Virus record (IMG/VR): IMGVR_UViG_3300031656_000001
Source: a virus
Direction: 5' to 3' (one strand)
Length of the DNA: 64,000 nucleotides
Every line of letters starts with the position of its first letter. The stretch's first letter is position 1. A model generated the notes under the pieces. The model saw only the letters and a list, made by a program, of their open reading frames with translations, searched no databases and had not been told where the DNA came from. The position numbers and the translations under genes were made by a program. Of the stretch, positions 5,019 to 46,221 are shown piece by piece.

Positions 5019-6689
5019 TTATTCAATTGTTTCTATAGTAAACTTAGAGAACCCGTTTTCACGATAAATCTCAATTTTCTTATCAAATATCTCATGTGGT
5101 AAAACTGAGTGGTTTATCACAAAGGTATTTATCTTATTTTCTTTTATGACTTGATTAAGAATTTTCAATATGTTATATACTCCATCATTGTCTACAGAAC
5201 TTAATAATTCATCTAAGAACAATAAGTTTAATTGAGGGAATCTTAATTTAAGTATCTTGATGATTGCAATGATAATAATAAAATCTGCTTTCTTTCTCTC
5301 ACCAGTAGAAAGTGTCATTGGATTAATATCTTCACCTAAGTGATTAATAATACAATTGAATTTCTCATCAAATCTAATATGGAACGGTAAGTGCATTGTC
5401 TGACTCATCGCTGCAATATTTGAATTTAATCCTGGTAAAATAGTTTTGACTGCAAGATTTTTAACACCATCTTCACCTAAAACCCTTTCAACAATTTCCA
5501 TAAATGCATATTCTGCATTCAATGTATCTTTATTACCAGATTTAGTAGATTCTTTTTGTTCAAAGTCTGTAATCAAAGTCTTAAGGTGTTCAAACTGAGA
5601 ATCATCTGGTGTATCTTTTATTTTAAGCAATTCAGATTTAAAAGATTTCATATTGTATCTAATATCTGATGCTCTTTGTTCTAATACATTTTTATTGATT
5701 CTTAATTGATCAATATTTGATTTGACACTTGTTAATGATTCTTTAAGTTCTTTGATACGATTGGTATCAGTTTCAATTTTAGTACAAAAATGTTCCTTTT
5801 GATCCATGTGCCATTGACTATCTAATTCAGTTTCACATGTAGGGCATTTTCCACTCTCATATAAATCTAACTTTTTCTTAAGATATTCAATTTCATGTTT
5901 TAATGTAGATGCATCAGATCTTACCGTTTCATAAACAGTTGTATCATATTTGATCTCTTTGTCAATTCCAGTCTTTTCTAGATCTAATGCCTTAACGCTT
6001 TCATTAAGTTGAATTAAATTTGTTTTTAATTCATCTATTTTAGAATTGTTCTTTTCTTGTGATTCTTCTAGTAATGTATTAAGTTTACCTTTTACAGATC
6101 CTATAGAATCTATAATTTGGTTTAACTCTGATTCGTATGAATCTATATCTGTTTTGATATTCTTTCTCTCCATTTTAATAGAGGTTTGCATATCATTAAG
6201 AATAGAGAAACCAAACATCTTATCAATAATTTGTTTTTTATCTTGATTAGACATTGTCAAAAATGACTTAAAATCATTAACTGATAAAATTATAATGTTT
6301 TTAAATACATGATATGGTATACCGTATATCTCGTCTTCTAAATAGTCCTGTACTGATTTCTTACCAGCCTTATCAAATTCTACACCATTTAATTTAACAC
6401 TAAATTTAGTAGGCATTAAACCTCTTTCTATTATAACATTTATAGAACCGCATTTTAATGCGATCTTAACGTGTAATTCTTTGTTAATCCTATTAGGAAG
6501 ATCTGCAAGTTTAACGCCTTCGACTCTTCCATATAACGCGTATATAATAGCATTAGCAATAGTAGTTTTACCATCGCCATTCTTTCCAAGTGTCAAAAAC
6601 AATTCAGAAGCATCTTCTTCAAACTCTATTCTTTGTAATTGATTACCGTAAGATGCAAAGTTTTTAAATTCTATAAAATCTATTCTCAT
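5019..6689 (-). CDS. Recombination ATPase, T4 gp46/SbcC-Rad50-like
   Basis: KNFASYGN, Walker A GKNGDGKTT, zinc hook CPTC, signature LSTGE, Walker B LFLDE. Confidence 0.95.
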   Translation of the reverse strand: MRIDFIEFKNFASYGNQLQRIEFEEDASELFLTLGKNGDGKTTIANAIIYALYGRVEGVKLADLPNRINKELHVKIALKCGSINVIIERGLMPTKFSVKLNGVEFDKAGKKSVQDYLEDEIYGIPYHVFKNIIILSVNDFKSFLTMSNQDKKQIIDKMFGFSILNDMQTSIKMERKNIKTDIDSYESELNQIIDSIGSVKGKLNTLLEESQEKNNSKIDELKTNLIQLNESVKALDLEKTGIDKEIKYDTTVYETVRSDASTLKHEIEYLKKKLDLYESGKCPTCETELDSQWHMDQKEHFCTKIETDTNRIKELKESLTSVKSNIDQLRINKNVLEQRASDIRYNMKSFKSELLKIKDTPDDSQFEHLKTLITDFEQKESTKSGNKDTLNAEYAFMEIVERVLGEDGVKNLAVKTILPGLNSNIAAMSQTMHLPFHIRFDEKFNCIINHLGEDINPMTLSTGERKKADFIIIIAIIKILKLRFPQLNLLFLDELLSSVDNDGVYNILKILNQVIKENKINTFVINHSVLPHEIFDKKIEIYRENGFSKFTIETIE

Positions 6690-7801
6690 ATTTCTATACC
6701 GTTATTATGAGCACATTGATTATATAGTGCCATTAGTTTTTCTTTTAGTCTGCTTTTAGTTTCTTCATCATCACCTAAACTTTCAACATATACATTACAT
6801 AAATTCATTATACTGTAATTCTTATACATTTCTTCTACATCATCCATATCATGAAAATCCTTATCGATATAATTATCTTCTTGATAAATATTCGGTTCAA
6901 GTTTTCTACTAATATTTTGTATCTTATTAATAAGTTGACTTAATGCATTTGTTGTTGCGATCTTTGATGGGACGAATAAATCTACAAAATTGTTTTTGAT
7001 CTGATGTTTAAACGTTCCAAGTGGCATATCATATAGCTGCATGATGTTATATTTCATGAACTTAGGTGATATATCATTTACATAAAATGTCTCTGACATG
7101 TCTTCTAAATCTACTAGGTCAAATCCTTTAGCATTATTTGCATCAGATCTTGTCAATTGATATGGAGTACCAACCATTAATAACTTACCTTTTTCTTGTC
7201 TAAAATGAATATGCCCAGAATAAACTCTTAAATATCTGTCATATATGTTTGAGTCTGTTCCGTGTTGATTTTTAACTTTAGCGTTTAAATAAATACCTTT
7301 AACTTCCGAATGACAAAATACTATTTCTGCTGTTGGGTATTCTACAAGTGTTTCTGTTTCGTGATCAGCATCTCTTCTCCATGGCATCATTAATACCTTC
7401 CTACCATGCCATTCCATCATTTTAGGTTCTTTATAGATCTGTACGTTTGGTATCCATTTAAGTGAATCTATTGAAGTTACTTCGTTTGAGTTCTTAGCCC
7501 AAATATCGTGATTACCACAAATGACATGAACTGGTAGAATTTTACCAAGTTCTTCAAATAAAGTTACCGCGTAGTTTAATACCCTTATATTAATAGATTG
7601 TCTATTATCAAAGGTATCACCGACTTGTACTAGTACATCGCCTGGTTTTACGTTAGCTCTAAGATTCGGTAGAAACACATCTTCAAAAAATTGCTTTTGA
7701 ATTTCTAGCCATTCCATAGAATTAGCTCTTACACCAAAATGCAAATCTCCGAGTATCCAAACTCTTCCTGCGCCTTTCTTTAAAACATGTGCTTCTATCA
7801 T
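6686..7801 (-). CDS. Recombination nuclease, T4 gp47/SbcD-Mre11-like
   Basis: GDLHFG, GDTFD, GNHD, SGHIH metallophosphoesterase motifs; overlaps gp46. Confidence 0.95.
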   Translation of the reverse strand: MIEAHVLKKGAGRVWILGDLHFGVRANSMEWLEIQKQFFEDVFLPNLRANVKPGDVLVQVGDTFDNRQSINIRVLNYAVTLFEELGKILPVHVICGNHDIWAKNSNEVTSIDSLKWIPNVQIYKEPKMMEWHGRKVLMMPWRRDADHETETLVEYPTAEIVFCHSEVKGIYLNAKVKNQHGTDSNIYDRYLRVYSGHIHFRQEKGKLLMVGTPYQLTRSDANNAKGFDLVDLEDMSETFYVNDISPKFMKYNIMQLYDMPLGTFKHQIKNNFVDLFVPSKIATTNALSQLINKIQNISRKLEPNIYQEDNYIDKDFHDMDDVEEMYKNYSIMNLCNVYVESLGDDEETKSRLKEKLMALYNQCAHNNGIEI

Positions 7802-13500: not shown

Positions 13501-13785
13501 TTATCTAAGACCTAATTCATCTCGTAAATCTTTCCAGTAAAAATCAGCAATGATTTCTTTAACTGTCATTTCATTATTTTCACCCCAATCAGATATGTAA
13601 TCAAACATTACTTCTTGGCTAAAATCGTCTTCGTCTAATTTACCATCCATGAATTCATCTTCATATGAATCATAAATGTCATCTGCAACCTCATCAGTAA
13701 ACACTCTAAGTTTTTTAATGTCTGATGATGAATATTTCTCGTTTAATGTTGAAGCAAATGCTTCAAATAATTTTACATGTTTCAT
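13501..13785 (-). CDS. Acidic protein with CTS-like leader (putative internal head protein)
   Basis: MKHVKLFEAFASTLNE leader; 26 of 94 residues D/E. Confidence 0.55.
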   Translation of the reverse strand: MKHVKLFEAFASTLNEKYSSSDIKKLRVFTDEVADDIYDSYEDEFMDGKLDEDDFSQEVMFDYISDWGENNEMTVKEIIADFYWKDLRDELGLR

Positions 13786-14566: not shown

Positions 14567-14878
14567 TTAGTCCCAGTTTTCTTCTTCTTCTGGCGCATGA
14601 TCATTAACGAAATCTATGAAGTCTTCTGCTGTTTTAATTTTGTCGCCATCATCAGACCTTGCAATCCTTTGGTCTTCACCATTTGCTGTTTCTTCTTCAG
14701 GATACCATGTGAATACCACTGCGTAGTCTTTGTTTTCTTCAAAATCCCATACTGTTATTTGGTTTCCGTCTAGCGTTACATTATGGAAGTAATCTTTGAT
14801 CTCTTTGAATTCTTTCTTATAAGATTTTGCTTCGTTTACTGTTGAAGCAAATGCTTCAAATAATTTTACGTGTTTCAT
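14567..14878 (-). CDS. Acidic protein with CTS-like leader (putative internal head protein)
   Basis: MKHVKLFEAFASTVNE leader; late promoter at 14911-14919. Confidence 0.55.
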   Translation of the reverse strand: MKHVKLFEAFASTVNEAKSYKKEFKEIKDYFHNVTLDGNQITVWDFEENKDYAVVFTWYPEEETANGEDQRIARSDDGDKIKTAEDFIDFVNDHAPEEEENWD

Positions 14879-25333: not shown

Positions 25334-26152
25334 TTAATACTCAAATGGAGGTGTTCCGTAATCTGCTCTTTTAACAGCGAACCACATTCTTCCTATAACG
25401 AAATACCAGAATCTATCTGTTTCAATTATATAGTGTTCTCCTTTAGGACTCGTAGACTTATAACCACCTCTTGTGAAGTTCTTAGTTACAGGTACTCCGT
25501 CTTCCCATGTTTTATCAGTTGATTGTGCTTTGAATGATTTACCACTAAATGTAGCTAAATGAATTTCTGGATTCATCTTATCAGATTCCATATCTTCTGC
25601 AAATTGATCTATGCCTCTTGGTTTTTGAGCATCTGCTTCATTAACTTTAGATTCATTAAATGATTTCATCCATTCTGCTAATACATTTCTTGCTTCGCTT
25701 TTACTAAGATCAAACTCTTTTTGTAAATATGGAGCTGCACCAAACATATTGGTTTTACCAGAATCTCTTAGTGTTAATAGAAAGTCATAATAAATTCTAT
25801 CTTGATCTGAAGTTTTATCAACTCTAGATTCGTTTACTTTAGAATAAAGTCCTTTATCTCCGTTCCATTCCCAATCAGCTTCATCAAAACCTTTAAGTTT
25901 TTTAGCTTTTTGATAATCTTCAGATGACAAATGAGATTGTTTAAGATTTACTCCTTCTGATATGAAAGATTCTAATGTTTTTAAGTGTTTCATTCTTTTC
26001 TTTTTCTTTTTATATTCTTCTTCGGCATCGCCACTACCAGCTGGTACATCACCAGAACCTAATGTTCCGTTGCCCGGTAATTCTACTGGACCCATACCTG
26101 ACATTGCTGCGGTTGAAACTGTTTCTGTTAATTTTTTGCTAATATCTGACAT
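25334..26152 (-). CDS. Multi-module protein with internal CTS-like tag
   Basis: Internal MKHLKTLESFISE (ATG 25993); modules bounded by ISE/VNE; contains LRDSGKTNMFGAAPYL module. Confidence 0.55.
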   Translation of the reverse strand: MSDISKKLTETVSTAAMSGMGPVELPGNGTLGSGDVPAGSGDAEEEYKKKKKRMKHLKTLESFISEGVNLKQSHLSSEDYQKAKKLKGFDEADWEWNGDKGLYSKVNESRVDKTSDQDRIYYDFLLTLRDSGKTNMFGAAPYLQKEFDLSKSEARNVLAEWMKSFNESKVNEADAQKPRGIDQFAEDMESDKMNPEIHLATFSGKSFKAQSTDKTWEDGVPVTKNFTRGGYKSTSPKGEHYIIETDRFWYFVIGRMWFAVKRADYGTPPFEY

Positions 26153-37064: not shown

Positions 37065-38128
37065 AAATCTAATTGACTTGAAGTGAAATATTGATCGATC
37101 TTTTTATGAGCATCGATTTTAAGCTCAAAGCATTTCTTCATTAAGTCGTTTAGATCTTTAATATTATATATATCTAACTTACTGTCCTTAAGGAATTTAG
37201 CCCACATGAATACAGGTCTGCCTTTTTTAAGCTTCTCTGCCATTTTCTTTTTACCAGTTATATCATTGTCAAACATATATCTGACAGTTGGTATTTCATC
37301 AAAATCATCAGTTGATCTTCCGGCAGTTGCAAGCGCTAATGAATTATTCATGAACTTTGCATCTAATGGTCCTTCAAATAATGTAACAGGCCGTTGGAAA
37401 TTTAATTGCATAATACCAAACAATGTTGAAATCTTCGTAAGAGTATTTAACTCTTCATTAGTCATTTCAAGCGGTGCTCCCATTTCTTCATAGAGTTTAG
37501 GTAAATCATATGTCAAATATCTCTGGCCATATCCTTTCATCCTACGCGTCTGTGCACCTATTATTTTGTTATCTTTACTAAAGTTTAAAATCCACAATCT
37601 GTGTTCTTTTTCTGAATATAAGAAGTCGTCAAGTCTATTGTGTAATAATCTATCTTTCAATTGAAACCATATCCAATCACCTGGAACTATTGATTTTGCT
37701 CTGAATTTTACTTTAAACGTATCAATGTCTATTGCTAATTCATGAACCTTTTCTAGTGCTTGGTGCTTTAATACAGACTCAGGGTTGACTTGTATCTTGT
37801 TTTGCTTTATGTAATCTATGATCAAGAAAGATGCATCAGATGTGTCCATCTTAACATCATGATCTTTTAAAAATGTATAAACATTTGTATGATGACTACA
37901 ATTGTAACAATGATACTGTAGAGTATCCCAGAATATATTGCCTCTTTTCTTAGTGTCATCCGAATAAGAATCACCACAATAAGGACATGCACAGGTTATA
38001 CGCCCATGCATGTCTTTAAGTAGTTTCTTATTAGGTTCAGGATGTACTTGAGATACTACTTGTTTAAGTGCGTATCTTATTTTATCCTTTAACTCTTCAG
38101 TAAGTTCTATATTAGATATCAAGGTCAT
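37052..38128 (-). CDS. DNA primase, T4 gp61-like
   Basis: Zn finger CPYCGDS...HCYNC, TOPRIM EGPLD, FDND, KDLND. Confidence 0.93.
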   Translation of the reverse strand: MTLISNIELTEELKDKIRYALKQVVSQVHPEPNKKLLKDMHGRITCACPYCGDSYSDDTKKRGNIFWDTLQYHCYNCSHHTNVYTFLKDHDVKMDTSDASFLIIDYIKQNKIQVNPESVLKHQALEKVHELAIDIDTFKVKFRAKSIVPGDWIWFQLKDRLLHNRLDDFLYSEKEHRLWILNFSKDNKIIGAQTRRMKGYGQRYLTYDLPKLYEEMGAPLEMTNEELNTLTKISTLFGIMQLNFQRPVTLFEGPLDAKFMNNSLALATAGRSTDDFDEIPTVRYMFDNDITGKKKMAEKLKKGRPVFMWAKFLKDSKLDIYNIKDLNDLMKKCFELKIDAHKKIDQYFTSSQLDLWYV

Positions 38129-39020
38129 CTAAAAAAGAATCTAGATCATCATCTGTTGAAACACTTGAAGTTGATTCTGTTTTAGTTGGCGCTGCCTTTT
38201 CTGCAACTGCTGTTGCAGTTTTAGTCTTTTTTCTAGGAGCGCTCGATGTCATTTCACCGATCGAATCACCTGGATTAAGATACATTCTTAATACGTCATT
38301 TACAAATGACCTTGTATCTTCGTCCCATGCTTGGTAATCATATCCTTTCAATGAAGGAGCTGACTCTAATTCTGCTTTAATAGCAGTCATAGTTTCTTTA
38401 TTACGCTCTGCTGGTGCATCGCCCATAATTACCGCTGATTGACTAGCTGAGAATTTAGATGTATCATAGTTGTTATATTCACCTTGTCTAGTGATAACTA
38501 ATTCAAAGTTCTTTCCTTCGAAAAGGTCAAATACTTGAGTTGGTTCACCAAAGTTTGGCTTTAATTCTGCATCGATCTTTTCTTTGATCTTATAACCAAA
38601 TTTGAAGATTTTGTATTGTCCTTCTAAATCTGTGTTTTGTGGATCTTTAATGATCTTTACTAATGCGTAGTATTGTTGACGTCTTTTCAGTTTCTCAGAA
38701 GACTTACGGTCTACTGCTGAATCTGATTTACGTAGTTTCCAAAATACATCTGCGATAGGGCATTTCTCACCAATAGTTGATGGAGAATCTACCAATTTAC
38801 CGTCACCACTAGAATTAGTTAACCAGTGTACGTATTTTTGAATTAGTGAATTACGAGGATTTTCAGGATTTGGTACAAAACGTATTAGTGCTTTGTAAGT
38901 TCCGTCTTTTCCGTCGTCTGCGGATGGTTTGTAGATCTCTTGTGAAGATGTACTTGCTTGGACTTGATGTGTTTCCACGTCTTCGATGCCCAAATTAAAA
39001 ATGTCAAATGATTCGCTCAT
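38112..39020 (-). CDS. Single-stranded DNA-binding protein, T4 gp32-like
   Basis: A.IRF.P, CPI, IIKDP, F.FG.KI, NYD.SKF, acidic tail DDDLDSFLDDL. Confidence 0.93.
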   Translation of the reverse strand: MSESFDIFNLGIEDVETHQVQASTSSQEIYKPSADDGKDGTYKALIRFVPNPENPRNSLIQKYVHWLTNSSGDGKLVDSPSTIGEKCPIADVFWKLRKSDSAVDRKSSEKLKRRQQYYALVKIIKDPQNTDLEGQYKIFKFGYKIKEKIDAELKPNFGEPTQVFDLFEGKNFELVITRQGEYNNYDTSKFSASQSAVIMGDAPAERNKETMTAIKAELESAPSLKGYDYQAWDEDTRSFVNDVLRMYLNPGDSIGEMTSSAPRKKTKTATAVAEKAAPTKTESTSSVSTDDDLDSFLDDLDI

Positions 39021-39110
39021 ACCTTTAAATTGTTTAGTTTGTTAATTGTTTAATTGTTTACCTTGAAATTATTTTCAATACTTATATATGTAACTTTAGC
39101 AAAGTTTCAC

Positions 39111-39293
39111 TTATTTATTATCCATGGTTAAAATAGCTCCATTATCTTCTTTCCACTTTCCGTTCTCTGACTTAATCAGTCCAGATTTGTGTAATAACTC
39201 TTCGCGCTCAGTTTGACTAAGCTGGTTATTTCTCACCATTTTTATGAGAACCTTATTAAGGTGGAAGTAATCTATTGTAACTAGTTTTTGCAT
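39111..39293 (-). CDS. Small hypothetical protein
   Basis: 60-aa ORF with its own promoter motifs at 39326-39353. Confidence 0.55.
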   Translation of the reverse strand: MQKLVTIDYFHLNKVLIKMVRNNQLSQTEREELLHKSGLIKSENGKWKEDNGAILTMDNK

Positions 39294-39452
39294 ATTAATA
39301 TTTTAGTTAATCTTGCTAACTACCTATTATATATCACACTTTCTGTTTGTTTCAAAACTAGCCTATTTAATTATTTTTTAATTATTTTTTAGTAATTATG
39401 AAACAGTTTTGCGCCACGTGCATATAATAAATGTCTTAAAGTCAAAGATAGA

Positions 39453-40103
39453 TTAGGCTTGAGGTGTAGATATGTATGCAACTAAGAAATAAGCATCCAC
39501 CAAATCGTCCAATGGTTTTGGGATCTTCTTTTCAACTTCCAAACCTTTAACGTATTTCCACAAAGGGCTTTTAGCCAAGACTGGGTCTTCGTTCACATTT
39601 TGCTGAAAGGCATCAAATAATTGAAGCTTATTCATATTACCTTTACCAGCAAATTTCTTAATAGTGGTTGGAGCAACAGTTAGAATATCTTCTGGATTTA
39701 AAGTTCTTAAAAGTTTAAGTTTGAGGATTGCAGCGCCAGCCGCCATGTCAATCATATTGTTAGTTCCCATTTTAGAACCATAAGAAGTACCTTCAAATGC
39801 TATAGTAAAACCATCACCATCATGAGAGTTCTGTAATACTAAATTAATAATATCATCAGCCATCTTATCATAACGCTTGATCTTTAAAAGTTCTGCACTT
39901 GAGAATGATTCTTTATTTGTAAAATCTGGTTGGCTCACTAAAGTAACATCACTAAATAATGATATCTCTTCTTGAAGTCTCTGTTCTGCTTTAGTACCTG
40001 TTTTGGGTTTTATGTAACTAATAAAATGAAAGTTCTTACTCTTATCATTATATATGCATATTCCAGGGGAATTGAGGGAAAAGTCTACTGCTAAGTAATT
40101 CAT
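39453..40103 (-). CDS. RuvC-like (RNase H fold) Holliday junction resolvase
   Basis: AVDFSLNSPG, FEG, PTTIKKFAGKGN, DDLVDAY. Confidence 0.8.
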   Translation of the reverse strand: MNYLAVDFSLNSPGICIYNDKSKNFHFISYIKPKTGTKAEQRLQEEISLFSDVTLVSQPDFTNKESFSSAELLKIKRYDKMADDIINLVLQNSHDGDGFTIAFEGTSYGSKMGTNNMIDMAAGAAILKLKLLRTLNPEDILTVAPTTIKKFAGKGNMNKLQLFDAFQQNVNEDPVLAKSPLWKYVKGLEVEKKIPKPLDDLVDAYFLVAYISTPQA

Positions 40104-40472
40104 TTATATTCTTTTACCAAGACTAGCACCTAATGCGGCACCAACAAGTCTTGAGGTTAATAAATCGTAAATAATACCCTTTTGTATACCAAGGACTTTA
40201 GCAACCATCTTACCAACTGATTTACCTAGTGCAAATCCAGTAAGACCACCAATAATAGATCCAAAGAATCCTTCATTAGTTATTTCTTCGTTAAAGCTTT
40301 CGATGTCATATGTACCATCTTCATTCATGTATTGCTCATCAAATAAAGCAAGTGCTTCATCAATTCTAGCTTCTAATTCCGGAGTCCATTCTTCTTGTAG
40401 TCCTTCGTTGATTAGTTCCATATCGTTTTCAGAAATAGATTCTTCGACAATGTATTTGTTAAATGTTTTCAT
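40104..40472 (-). CDS. Acidic-propeptide / glycine-zipper membrane peptide with CTS-like leader
   Basis: MKTFNKYIVE leader, acidic first 67 aa, then GFFGSIIGG...GxxxG repeats; late promoter at 40476-40484. Confidence 0.55.
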   Translation of the reverse strand: MKTFNKYIVEESISENDMELINEGLQEEWTPELEARIDEALALFDEQYMNEDGTYDIESFNEEITNEGFFGSIIGGLTGFALGKSVGKMVAKVLGIQKGIIYDLLTSRLVGAALGASLGKRI

Positions 40473-40491
40473 ATGTTATATATCCTATATT

Positions 40492-41043
40492 TTATTCTAC
40501 TTCTAAACGTAGATTCAATTTATTATAAAAGAACGTAATATCGAATGTGTTAAACGAAGATACGTTTTCTGCAAAGTTTAAACTTAATTCATTTATAGAA
40601 TTCATAATACAATCAGTAAATTCTAAATATGCTACTGATGCACCTTCGGCATCTAGTATTCTTAAAGTTAAAGGTTCAGTATATGCTTGCTTAGTTGATC
40701 TTGCATAATAATATAATAGAGTATCCATCATAATCCAATAATTAATAAAACCATCTAGTAGTTGCATACTAACTGTAAATTCTCTGTTAATTGTATTTTG
40801 AATTGGCATTGCACCTCTATGATGTCTTTTAGTACCATCGTTATCCTCTTGTGTAATTGGATCAAATGAAACACCAGGTATATTAATACCTTGAATACTA
40901 TAATTAACAAAATCAACGGGTTCAGATAATAATCCACCTGGAACCTTATTAAGATATTTCTTATATTTATCGGCTACCTCTTTGGGTACAAATCCTCTAG
41001 GAAATCTAAAATCAAAACCGTTATTTCTACTATTAAGAACCAT
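40492..41043 (-). CDS. Tail tube/tube-terminator fold protein (T4 gp3/gp19-like)
   Basis: Q.INIPG, NY, LTL.ILD, F.D, F.I.F.Y pattern. Confidence 0.6.
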   Translation of the reverse strand: MVLNSRNNGFDFRFPRGFVPKEVADKYKKYLNKVPGGLLSEPVDFVNYSIQGINIPGVSFDPITQEDNDGTKRHHRGAMPIQNTINREFTVSMQLLDGFINYWIMMDTLLYYYARSTKQAYTEPLTLRILDAEGASVAYLEFTDCIMNSINELSLNFAENVSSFNTFDITFFYNKLNLRLEVE

Positions 41044-41045
41044 AT

Positions 41046-43109
41046 TTAAATTTTAAATTTACCAGACAAGATCATGTTCTCATCTATTCCGTTATTGACA
41101 CTGATATAGAATGTTTTATTCTGCATGCCTCTTATTGTATTTGCGTTTGCTTCATTTATTTGAAAGAGTACTTCACCTCTTTCCATATCAATATCTTTAT
41201 TAGATATGTTATTAAATTTAAGTTTTTGTTTCCCATCCGCAAACGTCATTATAACAGACTTTATACCTGTTAAAGAAACATATTCAATATCTCCACCTCT
41301 TTGTTTAGCTATTACAAATTTATAATAACTTGCAAATGGTGAAATTTCAATATTCAAATCACCAGATGATACGAACGGCTTTGTATCTATTTCTTCAACG
41401 CTTTGTGTTGTTATGTTTGTATTATTAGTAGTAAACATTATATTAGAACTACTAGCAATTACGTTATGTCTTTCAATAAATGTTGGTATGTGCTTAATAC
41501 TTTGTGGTAAATTATCTGTAAATATACCTTCTACTATTTTATTAGAAGCCATTGCAGGTAATACATTATAAACTTCAGTTAATTGATTCGGAGAATTAAT
41601 ACGTAGCTTACTCAATCTCTTACCATATTTAGCGGCTTGATTAATTGATAAACTAGCTCTTTTTACAATCTGTGTATTATCAGTTTGATTCCATATTCTC
41701 ATTGTAACATCAATAGAAAAACTAGATGCTATGTTACTATTAATAATAACAGGTCTAAAAACTATTGGAGTACTGAAATCATCATATTGAGTATAAGTTG
41801 TTTGGAATGTTTTAACTTCTGATGTACCTATTGTTTCAAAGACATCTACATCAAACATTGCTATAATATCGTCGGATGATGTTTGTATTTGATTTAGAAT
41901 ATATCCTTCGAATGCTCCAATTGAATCATCCTTTTCTCCGTATATTTTAAAGTAATCACCATCATCAGCATCTTCTACAACCACTGTAAAATCTTGAAAT
42001 TCATCTTCTCTAGAAACTGTAAACTTGTTTTCTTCAGCTGTTTGAAAATAATCATAACCATTAAATGTCTCTAAAGAATCTATAAGCTTAAATGTAAGTT
42101 CATAGTTAGCAGTTGGATTTAGATCACTAGAACCTATAACGCCTGTTCCATAAAATAAATCATTAAATTCAGTATTCTGTTGTACTAATGTAGGTACTTT
42201 AAGATCAATGAATTTACTATAAAGTGCTTCACCTAAAATAAAAGGTTTAGGATTTGCGTATTCGTAGTTACTTGTATTTAAGTATACTAATTGTGTTAAA
42301 TTGTTTTTAACTCCAGATGTTCTAGCGGCTGCAACTTCAAATAAGAAACCTTCATATCCTCTTGCCGCAAAACTATATCCACTTCTAAGGTGTAATCTAA
42401 TACTATCATATTTGATATGATTAATATTATCCATTGCATTCGTTTGTGAATTTAAAAGATCTGTTTCATTTCCACCGGTCCAATCAATATTATTATTAAT
42501 GTAATTAAACATATCATAATCTCCAGTTGAATCATATCCTAATAAAGCATATTTAGATCCGGTAGCATCAGACTTTACTGCGTGGTATCTTCCAATTGTT
42601 TGGTTGATATCATTACCAGTATTTTCATCAGGGTTTGCAAAAAGAGGGTTAGCTCTAGTGTCTACAATTATTTTACCACCTATTAATCCAGTATATGTAT
42701 AATCAATAGTACCGTTTTGTGTTGGTGTAAATTGACCTATCTTTGTAGTTGAAGAATATGAATAAATTCCAAGTGCTCCAGATAAATTGAATGCAGAAGG
42801 ATCTGGTAATAGACTTAAGTTAAACTTATATGTTTTACCGTTTTGTAATAAAAGTGTTCTAGCAGCAAAGTTCTCTACAGACAAATATCCGCTAGATGAC
42901 GTAACATCAAAATTTACTACAGCACTACCCAATTCATTAATTAAGTGGCGTTGTTTAGAAGGATCTCCTTTGACAGTGTCTAGGAATTTTACTTCACTAC
43001 CGTTATCATCTACTTCAATTTGATATTTGGTAGGATTACTTTGATCGTGGTATATAAACTCTAATAAAATATCAGAGTCTAAATAGAAATATCTTGATGA
43101 TTGTGCCAT
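41046..43109 (-). CDS. Hypothetical virion structural protein
   Basis: 687 aa, beta-rich, within tail block. Confidence 0.45.
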   Translation of the reverse strand: MAQSSRYFYLDSDILLEFIYHDQSNPTKYQIEVDDNGSEVKFLDTVKGDPSKQRHLINELGSAVVNFDVTSSSGYLSVENFAARTLLLQNGKTYKFNLSLLPDPSAFNLSGALGIYSYSSTTKIGQFTPTQNGTIDYTYTGLIGGKIIVDTRANPLFANPDENTGNDINQTIGRYHAVKSDATGSKYALLGYDSTGDYDMFNYINNNIDWTGGNETDLLNSQTNAMDNINHIKYDSIRLHLRSGYSFAARGYEGFLFEVAAARTSGVKNNLTQLVYLNTSNYEYANPKPFILGEALYSKFIDLKVPTLVQQNTEFNDLFYGTGVIGSSDLNPTANYELTFKLIDSLETFNGYDYFQTAEENKFTVSREDEFQDFTVVVEDADDGDYFKIYGEKDDSIGAFEGYILNQIQTSSDDIIAMFDVDVFETIGTSEVKTFQTTYTQYDDFSTPIVFRPVIINSNIASSFSIDVTMRIWNQTDNTQIVKRASLSINQAAKYGKRLSKLRINSPNQLTEVYNVLPAMASNKIVEGIFTDNLPQSIKHIPTFIERHNVIASSSNIMFTTNNTNITTQSVEEIDTKPFVSSGDLNIEISPFASYYKFVIAKQRGGDIEYVSLTGIKSVIMTFADGKQKLKFNNISNKDIDMERGEVLFQINEANANTIRGMQNKTFYISVNNGIDENMILSGKFKI

Positions 43110-43123
43110 TCTTTTATATTATT

Positions 43124-43927
43124 TTAAAATCTTAACCATTTTGGTGAGTAGTATAATCCAATGCCTATTGAAGGACCAGTACTTATGACCTGATTATTGT
43201 TTAAGTTGATTCCATATCCAATACCAAATCCTATAGCAAATCCACCTTTCTTAACTGGCTTTCTATTCAATTTTGTATTTATTAGATTTATGTTTTCAAT
43301 ATCTGTGAAAGTTAATCCAGGATATTTTGTTGATATTTTTAATTGATCAGCACCGTTGATATTTTCAATAGCAGCTAATAAACTAATTTTATGTGTTATG
43401 TCAAACGTTGCATCCCCGTAATTAAATCCAGTAGAATCCTTTGTTACAAACATAATACCTTTAAGATCTCTAGAATTACTATCGCCAAAATCATTAAACT
43501 TATTAAAAGTTAATTTAGTTGTTACTGAATCTACCTCTGTAGAAACCGTATTTACTATTATGCTATCTTTAATATCAATGTTTGCAGATAATAATGAATT
43601 TACTTTATTTAAATCTTTATTTATATTTAATGCATTCTTATATTTCTTTATTAATATAGATTGATCATCTTTTAAATCACTTAAATCAAGTTCATAGCTT
43701 CTAATCTCAGAGACTAAACTGCCATTACTGGAAGTCATTGTTCTGATAGTATCCTTTGATGCTAAATAATTATTGAAATTTCTATTAGAATCTTCTTTAG
43801 CAATCTCTACTTCTCTTTTAAGATTTTCAGTTTGATTACATTGTCTAAGAAACAGTAAAGCAAATAAAGCAATTGCTATGAATATAACAGTGTTTTTATT
43901 AGCAAATATATTTTTTAATTTATTCAT
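43124..43927 (-). CDS. Membrane-anchored coiled-coil protein, spanin-like candidate
   Basis: N-terminal TM (VIFIAIALFALLFL), coiled coil, C-terminal amphipathic beta-hairpin ending in F. Confidence 0.5.
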   Translation of the reverse strand: MNKLKNIFANKNTVIFIAIALFALLFLRQCNQTENLKREVEIAKEDSNRNFNNYLASKDTIRTMTSSNGSLVSEIRSYELDLSDLKDDQSILIKKYKNALNINKDLNKVNSLLSANIDIKDSIIVNTVSTEVDSVTTKLTFNKFNDFGDSNSRDLKGIMFVTKDSTGFNYGDATFDITHKISLLAAIENINGADQLKISTKYPGLTFTDIENINLINTKLNRKPVKKGGFAIGFGIGYGINLNNNQVISTGPSIGIGLYYSPKWLRF

Positions 43928-43949
43928 ATTATTATATATTCATCGTTTA

Positions 43950-44510
43950 TTATGGTGTAGAACCAGTTCCTCCACCTCCACTAGTTGTTGGTGTTGCAGT
44001 CGGTGTTGGTGTTGCAAACGTCGCAATAATTGATTGTGATGGTGTTGCAGTCGGTGTTGGTGTTGCAAACGTCGCAATAATTGATTGTGATGGTGTTGCA
44101 GTCGGTGTTGGTGTTGCAAACGTCGCAATAATTGATTGTGATGGTGTTGCAGTCGGTGTTGGTGTTGCTCCAGAACCAGTTCCTCCACCTCCACTAGTTG
44201 TTGGTGTTGCAGTTGGTGTTGCAGTTGGCGTTGCAGTTGGCGTTGCAGTTGGCGTTGCAGTAATTCCTGTACCAGCAGCTTGCGATACTGTTATTGCATC
44301 AGTAGTAGTGCCGTTATCATGAGTTACAGTAAGAGTAGCAGTCCTTGCAATACCAGTATTAACTCCTAATTCAATCCGCCATTCGTTGTTTGCAGTTGCA
44401 CCGAGTTGTGTAACCGTAATCCACACAGGCATAGAAGTCTGATTCCATGTGTATGACGTTCCTATTGGAGTAATATTTACTGTTCTCGTATATTGATTAG
44501 TTGCGCTCAT
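43950..44510 (-). CDS. BACON-like Ig domain plus Thr/Pro-rich tail
   Basis: W....P.WITV...NTG..RTA.LTVT...ITVSQAA is the BACON pattern; followed by ATPT repeats. Confidence 0.75.
   Translation of the reverse strand: MSATNQYTRTVNITPIGTSYTWNQTSMPVWITVTQLGATANNEWRIELGVNTGIARTATLTVTHDNGTTTDAITVSQAAGTGITATPTATPTATPTATPTATPTTSGGGGTGSGATPTPTATPSQSIIATFATPTPTATPSQSIIATFATPTPTATPSQSIIATFATPTPTATPTTSGGGGTGSTP
43990..44260. repeat. Coding tandem repeats: 51-bp unit x3.5 (43990-44168) and 12-bp ATPT units
   Basis: Units start at 43990, 44041, 44092, 44143; encode ATPTPTATPSQSIIATF. Confidence 0.95.
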
Positions 44511-44562
44511 CGTTATTTCTTTTTTATATTATATATATTCGTCTTCTTTTATCTAAGAATAT

Positions 44563-46221
44563 TTATAGGGGGTTACTAAATTCCTCCTCTTTTGCAAATA
44601 CTAAATTGTGCACTAAATATCCGTTTGCGAAATATACATCATAATCTTCAATATCTAATGAATAAGTAACAAACGATTCAGTTGGTGTCACTTTTACAAT
44701 ACTTGTAACATCAATCCATTCGTTATTTTCATTCAACATTTTATCACCAACTGCAACATCTTTAGTTATTTTAAATCTAACTTCATTTGCAACTGTCTTA
44801 ACTAAAACAGGGTGTTCGTATGTAATCTTAAGTGCATCATTGTTAATGTTATAATATGAAGTGTAAGTATCTACCTTTATGTTTACAACAGATGCTGTTG
44901 TATATTCGTCTATGTAATCAACAAATGGTGTATTGAATTCCAATAAATCAGATTCATCAACACCGAGTCCATTTATGTTTAATGATAATAATGAATCACC
45001 TACTATTAATTCCTCGATCAATTTAGTTTGCCCGTTTGCTAATGTTATTAATTCACCTGCCAAGTGACATCCTCCTCCCCCTCCACCTGTGCTAACAGTC
45101 GGTGTTGCAGTCGGTGTTGCAGTCGGTACCGCAGTTGGATTATTTTTTGTCACATTTACAGTTACTGATAATGTTGGTGTTGCAGTCGGTGTTGGTGTTG
45201 CAGTCACTGTGACCGCGTCAGAACCTGTTCCTCCGCCTCCACTACTAGTTGGTGTTGCAGTCGGTGTTGCAGTTACAGTAGGTGTTGGTGTTGCAGTTGT
45301 TATAGGCGTTCCATCAGCATTTGCATTAATGTTACCACCTATAATATTTATACTATCATTAACAGCTGTCCCGCATTCAGTACATAATTCTCTCCATTCG
45401 GGTGAATTTGAATTATAATAATATGCTTCAACTATATCTAATGTGTGATTAAATCTAATCATCCCAACTTTCGAAATCGCCGGCCTCTGTATTGTTGTTC
45501 CATACGGTAGTCTTAAATAACCTTTAAATTCTGCATCTATATCAACATCTAATATACCAGAACCTGTTGTTTCAAGTGTAATGTTTTGATTATTTATTGA
45601 TTTTAAACCAACGCCGTGACCTGTCATTGTTAATGGTGCAGTATCTGATGTGAACGTAATTTTATCTGTTGTGATTGCAAATTCTACATTAGAACTTCCA
45701 TAATCCTTTTTCAAATTAAATTTAGAAAAACCAGAAACTTCAGTGCTTGTTATCACTAAGCTACTAATAACACCTAAATTGACATGTTGTAATTTAATAT
45801 AGTTTTCATATATATTGTCTATAGCTATAGTCAATCTAGCATTAGTTAACGTATCACCGTCATTTACACTCTCTGTAAATGCAGGATCTCCTAACCATAT
45901 TATAGGTAAATTATTATCGCTACTTCTCTTTGGTTTTAAAATAGAAACAGTGTTTGTACTACCATTGCCAGCATTTACCTCAACTCTATACCACGGCGTA
46001 TCTGTTAATCCAGCAACACCTTGATCTCCTTGATCTCCTTTTTCTCCTTGATCTCCTTTTTGTCCAGTTGTACCTGGTAAACCTTGATCTCCCGTTTGAC
46101 CGATTGGCCCCATTGGTCCACCGCCATTTGCTAAAATTTGGTCAAAGTTATAATTGATTTTCCCGAACTTTATAGAGTCAGAATCGCTTGGGTGTAATAT
46201 CTCTTGAATGTTAATTGCCAT
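44563..46221 (-). CDS. Tail-fibre-like protein: collagen repeat, Thr/Pro linker, C-terminal Hint domain
   Basis: G-x-y repeats near N-terminus; GTT.QRP...GMIRFN; GGGGGG-CHLAG...TYEHP...YFANGYLVHN. Confidence 0.75.
   Translation of the reverse strand: MAINIQEILHPSDSDSIKFGKINYNFDQILANGGGPMGPIGQTGDQGLPGTTGQKGDQGEKGDQGDQGVAGLTDTPWYRVEVNAGNGSTNTVSILKPKRSSDNNLPIIWLGDPAFTESVNDGDTLTNARLTIAIDNIYENYIKLQHVNLGVISSLVITSTEVSGFSKFNLKKDYGSSNVEFAITTDKITFTSDTAPLTMTGHGVGLKSINNQNITLETTGSGILDVDIDAEFKGYLRLPYGTTIQRPAISKVGMIRFNHTLDIVEAYYYNSNSPEWRELCTECGTAVNDSINIIGGNINANADGTPITTATPTPTVTATPTATPTSSGGGGTGSDAVTVTATPTPTATPTLSVTVNVTKNNPTAVPTATPTATPTVSTGGGGGGCHLAGELITLANGQTKLIEELIVGDSLLSLNINGLGVDESDLLEFNTPFVDYIDEYTTASVVNIKVDTYTSYYNINNDALKITYEHPVLVKTVANEVRFKITKDVAVGDKMLNENNEWIDVTSIVKVTPTESFVTYSLDIEDYDVYFANGYLVHNLVFAKEEEFSNPL
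44605..45069 (-). other. Hint (intein-like/BIL) autoprocessing domain, no endonuclease
   Basis: Cys1, block B TxxH, terminal HN; +1 residue is Leu. Confidence 0.85.

Follow-up and report, generated by a model that had tools for sequence, protein, structure and literature searches.

The stretch of viral DNA analysed here (IMG/VR record IMGVR_UViG_3300031656_000001, 64,000 nucleotides; hereafter the window) comes from an uncultured marine T4-like phage. At 40104–40472 on its minus strand lies a single open reading frame (ORF) of 122 amino acids plus stop, with an ATG start and a TAA stop, whose product joins a strongly acidic N-terminal part to a cationic C-terminal tail built as a glycine zipper. 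We favour the explanation that this product is a head-internal pro-protein of the T4 type. Comparison with its homologues makes packaging into the prohead and processing there, taken by themselves, on balance probable; the complete chain, in which the protein is packaged and cut and the product is retained and finally acts on a membrane, is a tentative proposal, rather more apt to fail in one of its links than to hold throughout.

Residues 1–67 contain 21 Asp or Glu against 3 Lys or Arg and end in EITNE. Residues 68–122 begin GFFGSIIGGLTG and carry 7 Lys or Arg (five of them Lys) and one Asp, giving a net charge of +6, together with seven GxxxG motifs. These counts reproduce what an earlier note, made from the letters of the DNA alone, had stated of the two parts, namely a 67-residue half with 21 acidic and 3 basic residues that ends in EITNE and a 55-residue tail of about +6 with GxxxG zippers. 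The same note had placed the element at 40104–40484; the start of that span stands, while its end overshoots the ORF, which ends at 40472, by 12 non-coding bases. Shuffled versions of the 55-residue tail contained 2.29 ± 1.20 GxxxG motifs, with at least seven in 4 of 10,000 shuffles, and when the full protein was shuffled 100,000 times the observed charge segregation was never reached. The layout of acidic half and cationic zipper tail is thereby confirmed to be beyond chance.

In a collection of 5.8 billion clusters the protein has 677 homologues at E ≤ 0.01. Most stem from marine metagenomes, the longest contig measuring 271 kb, and any name they bear is “hypothetical”. A library clustered at 50% identity gave 268 cluster representatives at E ≤ 0.001. 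The comparisons below use 94 aligned diverse homologues, 24 close homologues or a set of representatives. Of 151 representatives 144 could be parsed, and seven rows were dropped because the pattern did not fit: P0162 and P0254 have the module and the Glu-Gly junction, and P0198, P0204, P0210, P0236 and P0266 are without an intact module. In the counts from the 144 the parsing pattern itself demanded a Glu at the junction; a count free of this bias comes from the corresponding column of the 94-homologue alignment.

The tail module is the best conserved part of the protein, with a mean pairwise identity of 0.60 (94 homologues); the leader reaches 0.29 and the middle part 0.23. Its small residues follow a register of G71, G75, G79, G83, G87, A91, G95 and G99, then G111, G115 and G119, and G79, G83, G99 and G115 are invariant in the 94 sequences. 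A core, DLLTSRLVG, which sits in the second helix-like stretch, is invariant in all 24 close homologues. The first 16 residues of the module (68–83) are apolar, with an Eisenberg mean of up to 0.59, and this run of 15–16 residues is followed by Lys84; residues ~76–101 form a Lys-faced amphipathic stretch with a hydrophobic moment of up to 0.42. Among the 144 representatives the module is cationic in 141 and the N-terminal part acidic in 140, the median net charge of the latter being −12 over the 94 homologues. Within the acidic middle part W29, T30, P31, E32, L33 and E34 are likewise the same in 24 of 24 close homologues.

No annotated PHROGs family was found for the protein, for the 94 homologues or for ten long forms described below. 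With Pfam PF13488 the protein scores 18.8 bits, below the gathering cut-off of 25, and sub-threshold Pfam matches (E 3.5e-05 to 0.01) among the 94 members were to PF13488 in 25, PF05433 in 12 and PF13441 in 4. The ESM Atlas returned unnamed viral clusters only, with a poor model (pLDDT 0.50) and structure matches at TM scores ≤ 0.44. A profile search of the PDB gave nothing significant, the best match being a designed binder at E = 0.031, accompanied by compositional matches to the glycine-rich segment of the prion protein at E = 0.2 to 10.

The leader resembles the capsid targeting sequence (CTS) of T4, which is given as MKTYQEFIAE (PMC8442874) and in which residues 4 and 7 are described as needed for targeting and residues 8 and 10 for processing (PMC9026906). 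The first ten residues of the present protein, MKTFNKYIVE, match this pattern at all four positions (F4, Y7, I8, E10). In the 24 close homologues K2, T3, F4, Y7 and E10 are invariant and position 8 is Leu or Ile; more widely, an aromatic residue at position 4 was found in 77 of 150 Met-starting representatives. A further site, Glu23 (LINE↓G, the arrow here and below marking a proposed cut), is kept in 73 of the 89 diverse sequences aligned there; in 63 of these, Leu, Ile, Val or Met stands at the third position before the cut (P3). By sequence comparison the two leader sites, IVE10 and INE23, both fit the pattern L/I-x-E. The earlier note had seen a CTS-like leader within the first 67 residues; the likeness holds for the first ten, and the leader is better taken as residues 1–23, ending LINE↓G.

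Five other ORFs of the window that carry an MK tag have a hydrophobic-Asn-Glu triplet ending at residues 13–20; such triplets are rare in the window's replication genes, and the capsid proteins of three relatives begin MANL[IL]NE. Two small ORFs at 13501–13785 and 14567–14878 (both minus strand) begin with the same 13 residues (MKHVKLFEAFAST), after which comes LNE or VNE, and look like duplicated tagged small proteins. In three relatives the gp23-type capsid protein carries a different motif in its N-terminal arm, GMG-x-V-x-[LF]P with GSGD 3–15 residues further on. Seven of 296 proteins of the present family have this motif too, mostly long forms (P0240, P0255, P0259, P0272, P0277, P0278, P0285), as does one ORF (25334–26152, minus strand) of the island of tagged proteins in the window; it may be a signal for the capsid interior or for maturation that was copied onto cargo.

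The junction between the acidic part and the module is conserved as well. Glu67 is found in 94 of 94 aligned homologues, followed by Gly in 82 and by Ser in 10; the E↓G of the E↓GFFG start proposed in the earlier note is thus borne out across the family, GFFG itself is not, the family reading G-[LIF]-[LF]-G without a conserved di-Phe. P3 of the junction is Leu, Ile, Val or Met in 67 of the 94 and Thr in 23. In the 144 representatives it is Ile in 57, Leu in 44, Thr in 22, Val in 10, Met in 7 and another residue in 4, with Asn (65), Asp (49) or Glu (15) at P2 and Gly or Ser after the cut in 141. The cleavage motif of the T4 prohead protease gp21 is described as L/I-X-E, with the cut after Glu, and an Asp in place of this Glu is said to stop processing in T4 and to leave targeting intact (PMC9026906). 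The family junction would usually fit the motif (Ile, Leu, Val or Met at P3 in 118 of 144). Glu32 and Glu34, which are conserved too and serve as an internal control, lack a hydrophobic P3, and this makes the pattern specific to the candidate sites. Hydrophobic-x-Glu sites occur within the module in 8 of the 94 homologues; the N-terminal part has a median of five. A protease of the gp21 type (Peptidase_S77, above the Pfam curated cut-off) is encoded by all five gene-bearing relatives checked, namely three marine IMG/VR contigs, the megaphage Lak-A1 and the phage LR756500, and a gp23-type capsid protein by all three of the marine contigs.

In the proposed chain of events the CTS-like leader (residues 1–10, extending to LINE at 23) would bring the protein into the prohead core. 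A gp21-type prohead protease, cutting after Glu in L/I-x-E, would remove the leader, fragment the acidic middle part and then cut at Glu67↓Gly68 or slightly ahead of it (candidates in this phage: FNE62 and TNE67), to leave a protease-resistant, cationic glycine-zipper peptide of 55 to 60 residues. This peptide would stay with the DNA in the manner of the basic internal proteins of T4 and would leave the head at infection; in the uncut precursor the acidic half would keep it soluble and harmless to the producing cell. At the host envelope its apolar Gly-x-x-x-Gly start and the Lys-faced amphipathic helix might insert into the cytoplasmic membrane and depolarise or permeabilise it, either aiding the entry of DNA or cargo or excluding later phages. 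The earlier note had likewise supposed that the prohead protease sets free a membrane-active peptide, for DNA ejection or membrane modulation, and the sequence data bear this out in part.

The membrane step is the weakest and most speculative part of this chain, and is inferred from the chemistry of the peptide and from injected bacterial effectors. In the effector Tde1 of a type VI secretion system (T6SS), a glycine zipper is reported to be needed for permeabilisation and crossing of the cytoplasmic membrane of the prey (PMC10240207). The C-terminal glycine-zipper domain of EsxX is reported to depolarise membranes and to be neutralised in the producer by sequestration of the zipper (PMC12744356). 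At its widest the proposal would cover a whole clade of large Bacteroidota phages, with marine members (contigs of ~170–270 kb) at one end and the 540-kb Lak phages of the gut at the other; their heads would carry a glycine-zipper peptide that is armed by the protease and, once ejected, makes an opening in the host cytoplasmic membrane through which DNA and protein cargo pass. The peptide would then be the phage counterpart of the zipper of T6SS effectors, and the module, fused to proteins of up to 1249 residues, a portable device for crossing membranes. In this extended form we regard the proposal as doubtful.

Among 50,697 phage records, tblastn matched only LR756500, a 462-kb uncultured phage whose homologue is 48% identical over the full length, and 15 metagenome-assembled Lak Prevotella megaphages, in which the match covers residues 62–119. 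One genome from each of 185,579 prokaryote species yielded a single matching locus, on a contig in a metagenome-assembled genome of Flavobacteriaceae, so that the gene is phage-only. It is present in a single clear copy in each of five phage genomes searched, a second match in LR756500 being weak (E = 0.0024, 16.9 bits), and three IMG/VR contigs carry orthologues 74–77% identical to the present ORF. The Lak-A1 homologue (5863–6189) has 108 amino acids, the junction IVDE↓G and a module of net charge about +1; it contains one in-frame TAG and reads through only where TAG encodes Gln.

The same module also ends much longer proteins. Of 150 listed representatives, 16 exceed 200 residues, and one member of the family has 1249. 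The long forms span 219 to 1249 residues and come from contigs as long as 316 kb; those examined end in the module with the exception of P0204, whose module is not intact. The triplets ahead of the Gly are INE, IDE, LQE, VDE, LNE, LDE, MNE or MDE, and in 143 of 144 representatives the junction lies 47–69 residues from the C-terminus. The N-terminal parts of the long forms matched nothing in PHROGs and, except for P0162, nothing useful in Pfam. P0162 (360 amino acids) joins a lipoprotein-like signal, a Scaffold match and a PG_binding_1 domain as in L,D-transpeptidases to family residues 12–122, and is probably a chimeric assembly or gene call. No related loci were found for P0272 and P0256 among viral contigs, for P0256 among metagenome contigs or for P0234 among genome contigs; by tblastn P0256 matched only the module of LR756500, and P0272 matched nothing.

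The window has a G+C content of 31.8% and all of its substantial genes are on the minus strand. Its T4-type genes encode a gp2-like DNA end protector, a gp4-like head closure protein, a gp55-like late sigma factor, a gp46/47-like nuclease, a replicative helicase, UvsX, gp32 and a primase, and it also encodes a split DNA polymerase and a ribonucleotide reductase. Megablast of positions 38000–46000 against the 50,697 phage records gave no match. The T4 late-promoter octamer occurs 12 times in the whole window against 16 expected and is not enriched; it therefore gives no evidence on the timing of expression, and late promoters must differ from those of T4 if the gp55-like factor is used. The ORF, its parts and the adjoining genes are listed in Table 1.

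Table 1. Positions of the ORF, of its parts and of the two adjoining genes in the window.
Feature	Position	Strand	Remarks
Whole ORF	40104–40472	−	122 amino acids plus stop; leader, acidic middle part and glycine-zipper module
Residues 1–10, MKTFNKYIVE	40443–40472	−	CTS-like decapeptide; aromatic residues at 4 and 7, Ile8, Glu10
Residues 11–23, ending LINE↓G	40404–40442	−	second conserved hydrophobic-x-Glu site; probable end of the leader
Residues 24–67, acidic middle part	40272–40403	−	conserved EEWTPELE motif; ends SFNE↓EITNE
Glu67↓Gly68 junction, proposed protease site	40269–40274	−	Glu in 94/94 homologues; Thr at P3 in this phage
Residues 68–122, glycine-zipper module, 55 amino acids	40107–40271 (stop codon beyond)	−	net charge +6
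Tail tube gene, immediately upstream of the ORF	40492–41043	−	phrog_45, E = 6.7e-06
RuvC-like resolvase gene	39453–40103	−	phrog_159, E = 2.6e-15; its ATG abuts the stop of the ORF

The local gene order is sheath-like gene, tail tube gene, ORF and RuvC-like resolvase gene. Of 75 related loci with room for the tube gene, 64 have it fewer than 200 nt upstream of the family gene; in the remaining 11 it does not directly adjoin, mostly with another gene between and in three loci with a partial or absent match. The RuvC-like gene is the next gene in all 81 related loci with room, abutting in 80 and lying 1 kb off in LR756500, which retains the order sheath, tube, family gene, RuvC-like gene and gp32. 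The abutment of the TAA stop with the RuvC-like ATG in 80 of the 81 loci suggests translational coupling. In Lak-A1 the prohead protease gene follows the family gene at a distance of 5 kb, on the same strand.

Two further genes stand near this cluster. A protein of ~270–280 amino acids with a single N-terminal hydrophobic anchor and no PHROG match precedes the sheath gene both in the window (43124–43927, minus strand) and in LR756500 (2267–3112). In LR756500 an extra gene at 6419–7270, between the family homologue and the RuvC-like gene, encodes a protein of 283 amino acids which is acidic and has a Gly/Ala-rich hydrophobic segment and a run of Lys near its C-terminal part; it is a second protein of similar design.

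Several observations weigh against the ORF encoding a head-internal pro-protein. It lies in a tail and replication region, away from head genes; searches of the genes of the 64-kb window found no head genes in it, and the gp21-type protease is known from the genomes of relatives. The CTS-like start is missing from about half of the representatives and fades with distance. At the junction, P3 is Thr rather than Leu or Ile in this phage and its close clade (TNE67), and the alternative site ending at residue 62, which reads LNE in 20 of 24 close homologues, is FNE here, with Phe at P3. Because of this Thr and the alternative site, the mature N-terminus may be either Gly68 or Glu63. The junction could also be conserved just because the module begins there structurally. 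Hydrophobicity of the module is weak, its highest 19-residue Kyte-Doolittle mean being 1.33; the customary threshold for a transmembrane segment is 1.6, and the module is therefore not a standard transmembrane anchor. Three long forms of the megaphage type have a module of net charge −1 with the zipper kept. Charge compensation, in which more cationic modules go with more acidic N-terminal parts (Spearman −0.42, p = 2e-5), does not hold on phylogenetically independent pairs, of which just four were supported, giving the test little power (median p = 0.5), and is thus not established once relatedness is allowed for. Lastly, tblastn found no cultured phage with the gene among the 50,697 records.

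Other explanations were weighed against the same data. A fairly unlikely one is that the protein is never packaged and acts within the infected cell, as a small protein associated with a membrane and anchored by a hairpin of the C-terminal glycine zipper, with the Glu-Gly pair as the start of a domain; it might then serve superinfection exclusion or lysis timing, or be a partner of the co-translated RuvC-like resolvase. This would agree with the constant position of the module at the extreme C-terminus, as in tail-anchored proteins, with the annotation of one homologue by one source as a YeaQ/YmgE-type membrane protein, with the sub-threshold matches to the Pfam glycine-zipper 2TM family and with the tight coupling of the gene to the RuvC-like gene and not to head genes. 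The hydrophobicity, however, lies under the usual transmembrane level and the first helix contains three Lys. The CTS-like residues 4, 7, 8 and 10 and the hydrophobic P3 before Glu67 would be left unexplained, and holins and exclusion proteins are seldom 60% identical between marine 170-kb phages and Lak megaphages. A holin or other transmembrane lysis protein was itself considered and rejected, the Kyte-Doolittle maximum being too low and the conservation too high. We hold it to be quite unlikely that the module is a handle for head assembly, which would hold the precursor in place or oligomerise it at the inner membrane or the scaffolding core, do the same for the larger proteins that bear the module, and be cut off at maturation as a disposable part. 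T4 proheads are described as assembling on the membrane and detaching after gp21 processing (PMC9026906), and such a role would suit the occurrence of one module at the end of otherwise unrelated proteins of 219–1249 residues, always after [hydrophobic]-x-Glu↓Gly, the motif that seven long forms share with the N-terminal arm of the capsid protein, and the place of the Lak-A1 gene 5 kb from the protease gene on the same strand. One would not, however, expect a disposable part to be the best conserved one or to have so few protease sites (found in 8 of 94); targeting is already supplied by the N-terminal leader, and the hydrophobicity is weak.

Decidedly unlikely, in our estimate, is an ordinary small basic internal protein, a Lys-rich peptide that binds and neutralises packaged DNA and has no role at a membrane. 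The internal proteins of T4 are described as highly basic, present at ~1000 per head and contacting DNA phosphates through their lysines (PMC8442874, PMC3012670), in keeping with which five of the seven basic residues of the module are Lys; yet this would explain neither the five invariant glycines in a four-residue register, nor the apolar start of 16 residues, nor the invariant DLLTSRLVG, and the three long forms of net charge −1 still keep the zipper. Very improbable, finally, is a tail assembly chaperone or another tail factor. The gene follows the tube gene within 200 nt in 64 of 75 loci, with the same order in LR756500, and its product has an acidic N-terminal half; small size and acidity are features of tail chaperones in other phages. 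In all 81 loci, however, the gene that comes next is RuvC-like and not a tape-measure gene, in 11 of 75 the tube gene is not the immediate neighbour, the Lak-A1 gene lies near the protease gene, and the CTS-like leader would have no explanation. A tail chaperone in the strict sense was rejected because the position is not between tube and tape-measure genes.

A head-internal pro-protein that yields a membrane-active peptide would bear on a step of infection that is still poorly understood, namely how contractile-tailed phages move DNA and head cargo across the cytoplasmic membrane; the known head cargo of T4-type phages consists of enzymes and inhibitors and not of membrane-active peptides. 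If the proposal is right, a conserved, single-copy, head-tagged precursor is armed by the head protease, a synthesisable peptide of 55 residues becomes a candidate for the membrane-crossing step, and a gene common to abundant marine phages and Lak megaphages gains a testable candidate function. Should masking by the acidic pro-region prove real, it would also show how a producer cell is kept safe from such a peptide.

Among known systems the closest in design are the internal proteins IPI, IPII, IPIII and Alt of T4. They share with the present protein the pattern of the first ten residues (MKTFNKYIVE here, MKTYQEFIAE in T4; PMC8442874), the logic of Glu-specific L/I-x-E sites (here predicted from sequence), a protease of the gp21 family (here in relatives), a basic mature product (here predicted, at +6, and positive in 141 of 144) and a gene away from the head cluster. 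They differ in that the product predicted here is a 55-residue glycine-zipper peptide and not a folded enzyme or inhibitor, that a conserved acidic pro-region of 44–57 residues stands between tag and product, and that P3 is Thr; beyond the tag no sequence homology to the family is detectable. The ejection proteins of P22 (gp7, gp16, gp20) and similar proteins are described as carried in the head and as building a conduit across the envelope (PMC8402733). As there described they share with the proposal that they are head-carried, are ejected before or with the DNA and act at the host envelope, and differ in being larger and podoviral and not cut from an acidic precursor by a prohead protease; they have no sequence similarity to the family.

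The influenza haemagglutinin (HA2) fusion peptide offers a shorter likeness: an N-terminal Gly, two hydrophobic residues and Gly-small-Ile, a glycine-rich composition, exposure by an upstream cut and activity on membranes, the last two being proposed here. The likeness spans about nine residues, the protease and the residue at P1 are other ones, and the di-Phe is not conserved in the family. The earlier note had called this resemblance probably convergent, and we agree that it is a short analogy, convergent at most; homology to haemagglutinin was rejected, none being among the 42 PDB sequences listed at E ≤ 10 in the profile search. The Pfam families PF13488 (Gly-zipper_Omp), PF05433 (Rick_17kDa_Anti, glycine zipper 2TM) and PF13441 (Gly-zipper_YMGG) have the same repeated small-xxx-small helix pattern; they are mostly bacterial outer-membrane lipoproteins, whereas the present module is found in phages only and has an invariant DLLTSRLVG core of its own.

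Tde1 of the Agrobacterium T6SS (PMC10240207) and EsxX of the Staphylococcus aureus type VII secretion system (PMC12744356) resemble the proposed peptide, as far as these sources describe them, in their runs of GxxxG motifs, in being delivered by an injection machine (a contractile, phage-tail-like one in the case of Tde1), and in the permeabilisation or depolarisation of a target cytoplasmic membrane that we propose here. In EsxX the zipper is also masked in the producer, the role that the acidic half may have in the present protein. The masking proposed here would differ in acting in cis and in being undone by proteolysis, the peptide would be delivered from a phage head, and the likeness drawn is one of design. 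The library of papers searched had none linking a glycine zipper with the prohead, or GxxxG with a phage internal protein and capsid. Loading and cutting in the style of the T4 internal proteins would thus be the known part of the present system, and the new part would be the predicted cargo, a glycine-zipper peptide that follows an acidic pro-region, both of them conserved, which is not a described head cargo.

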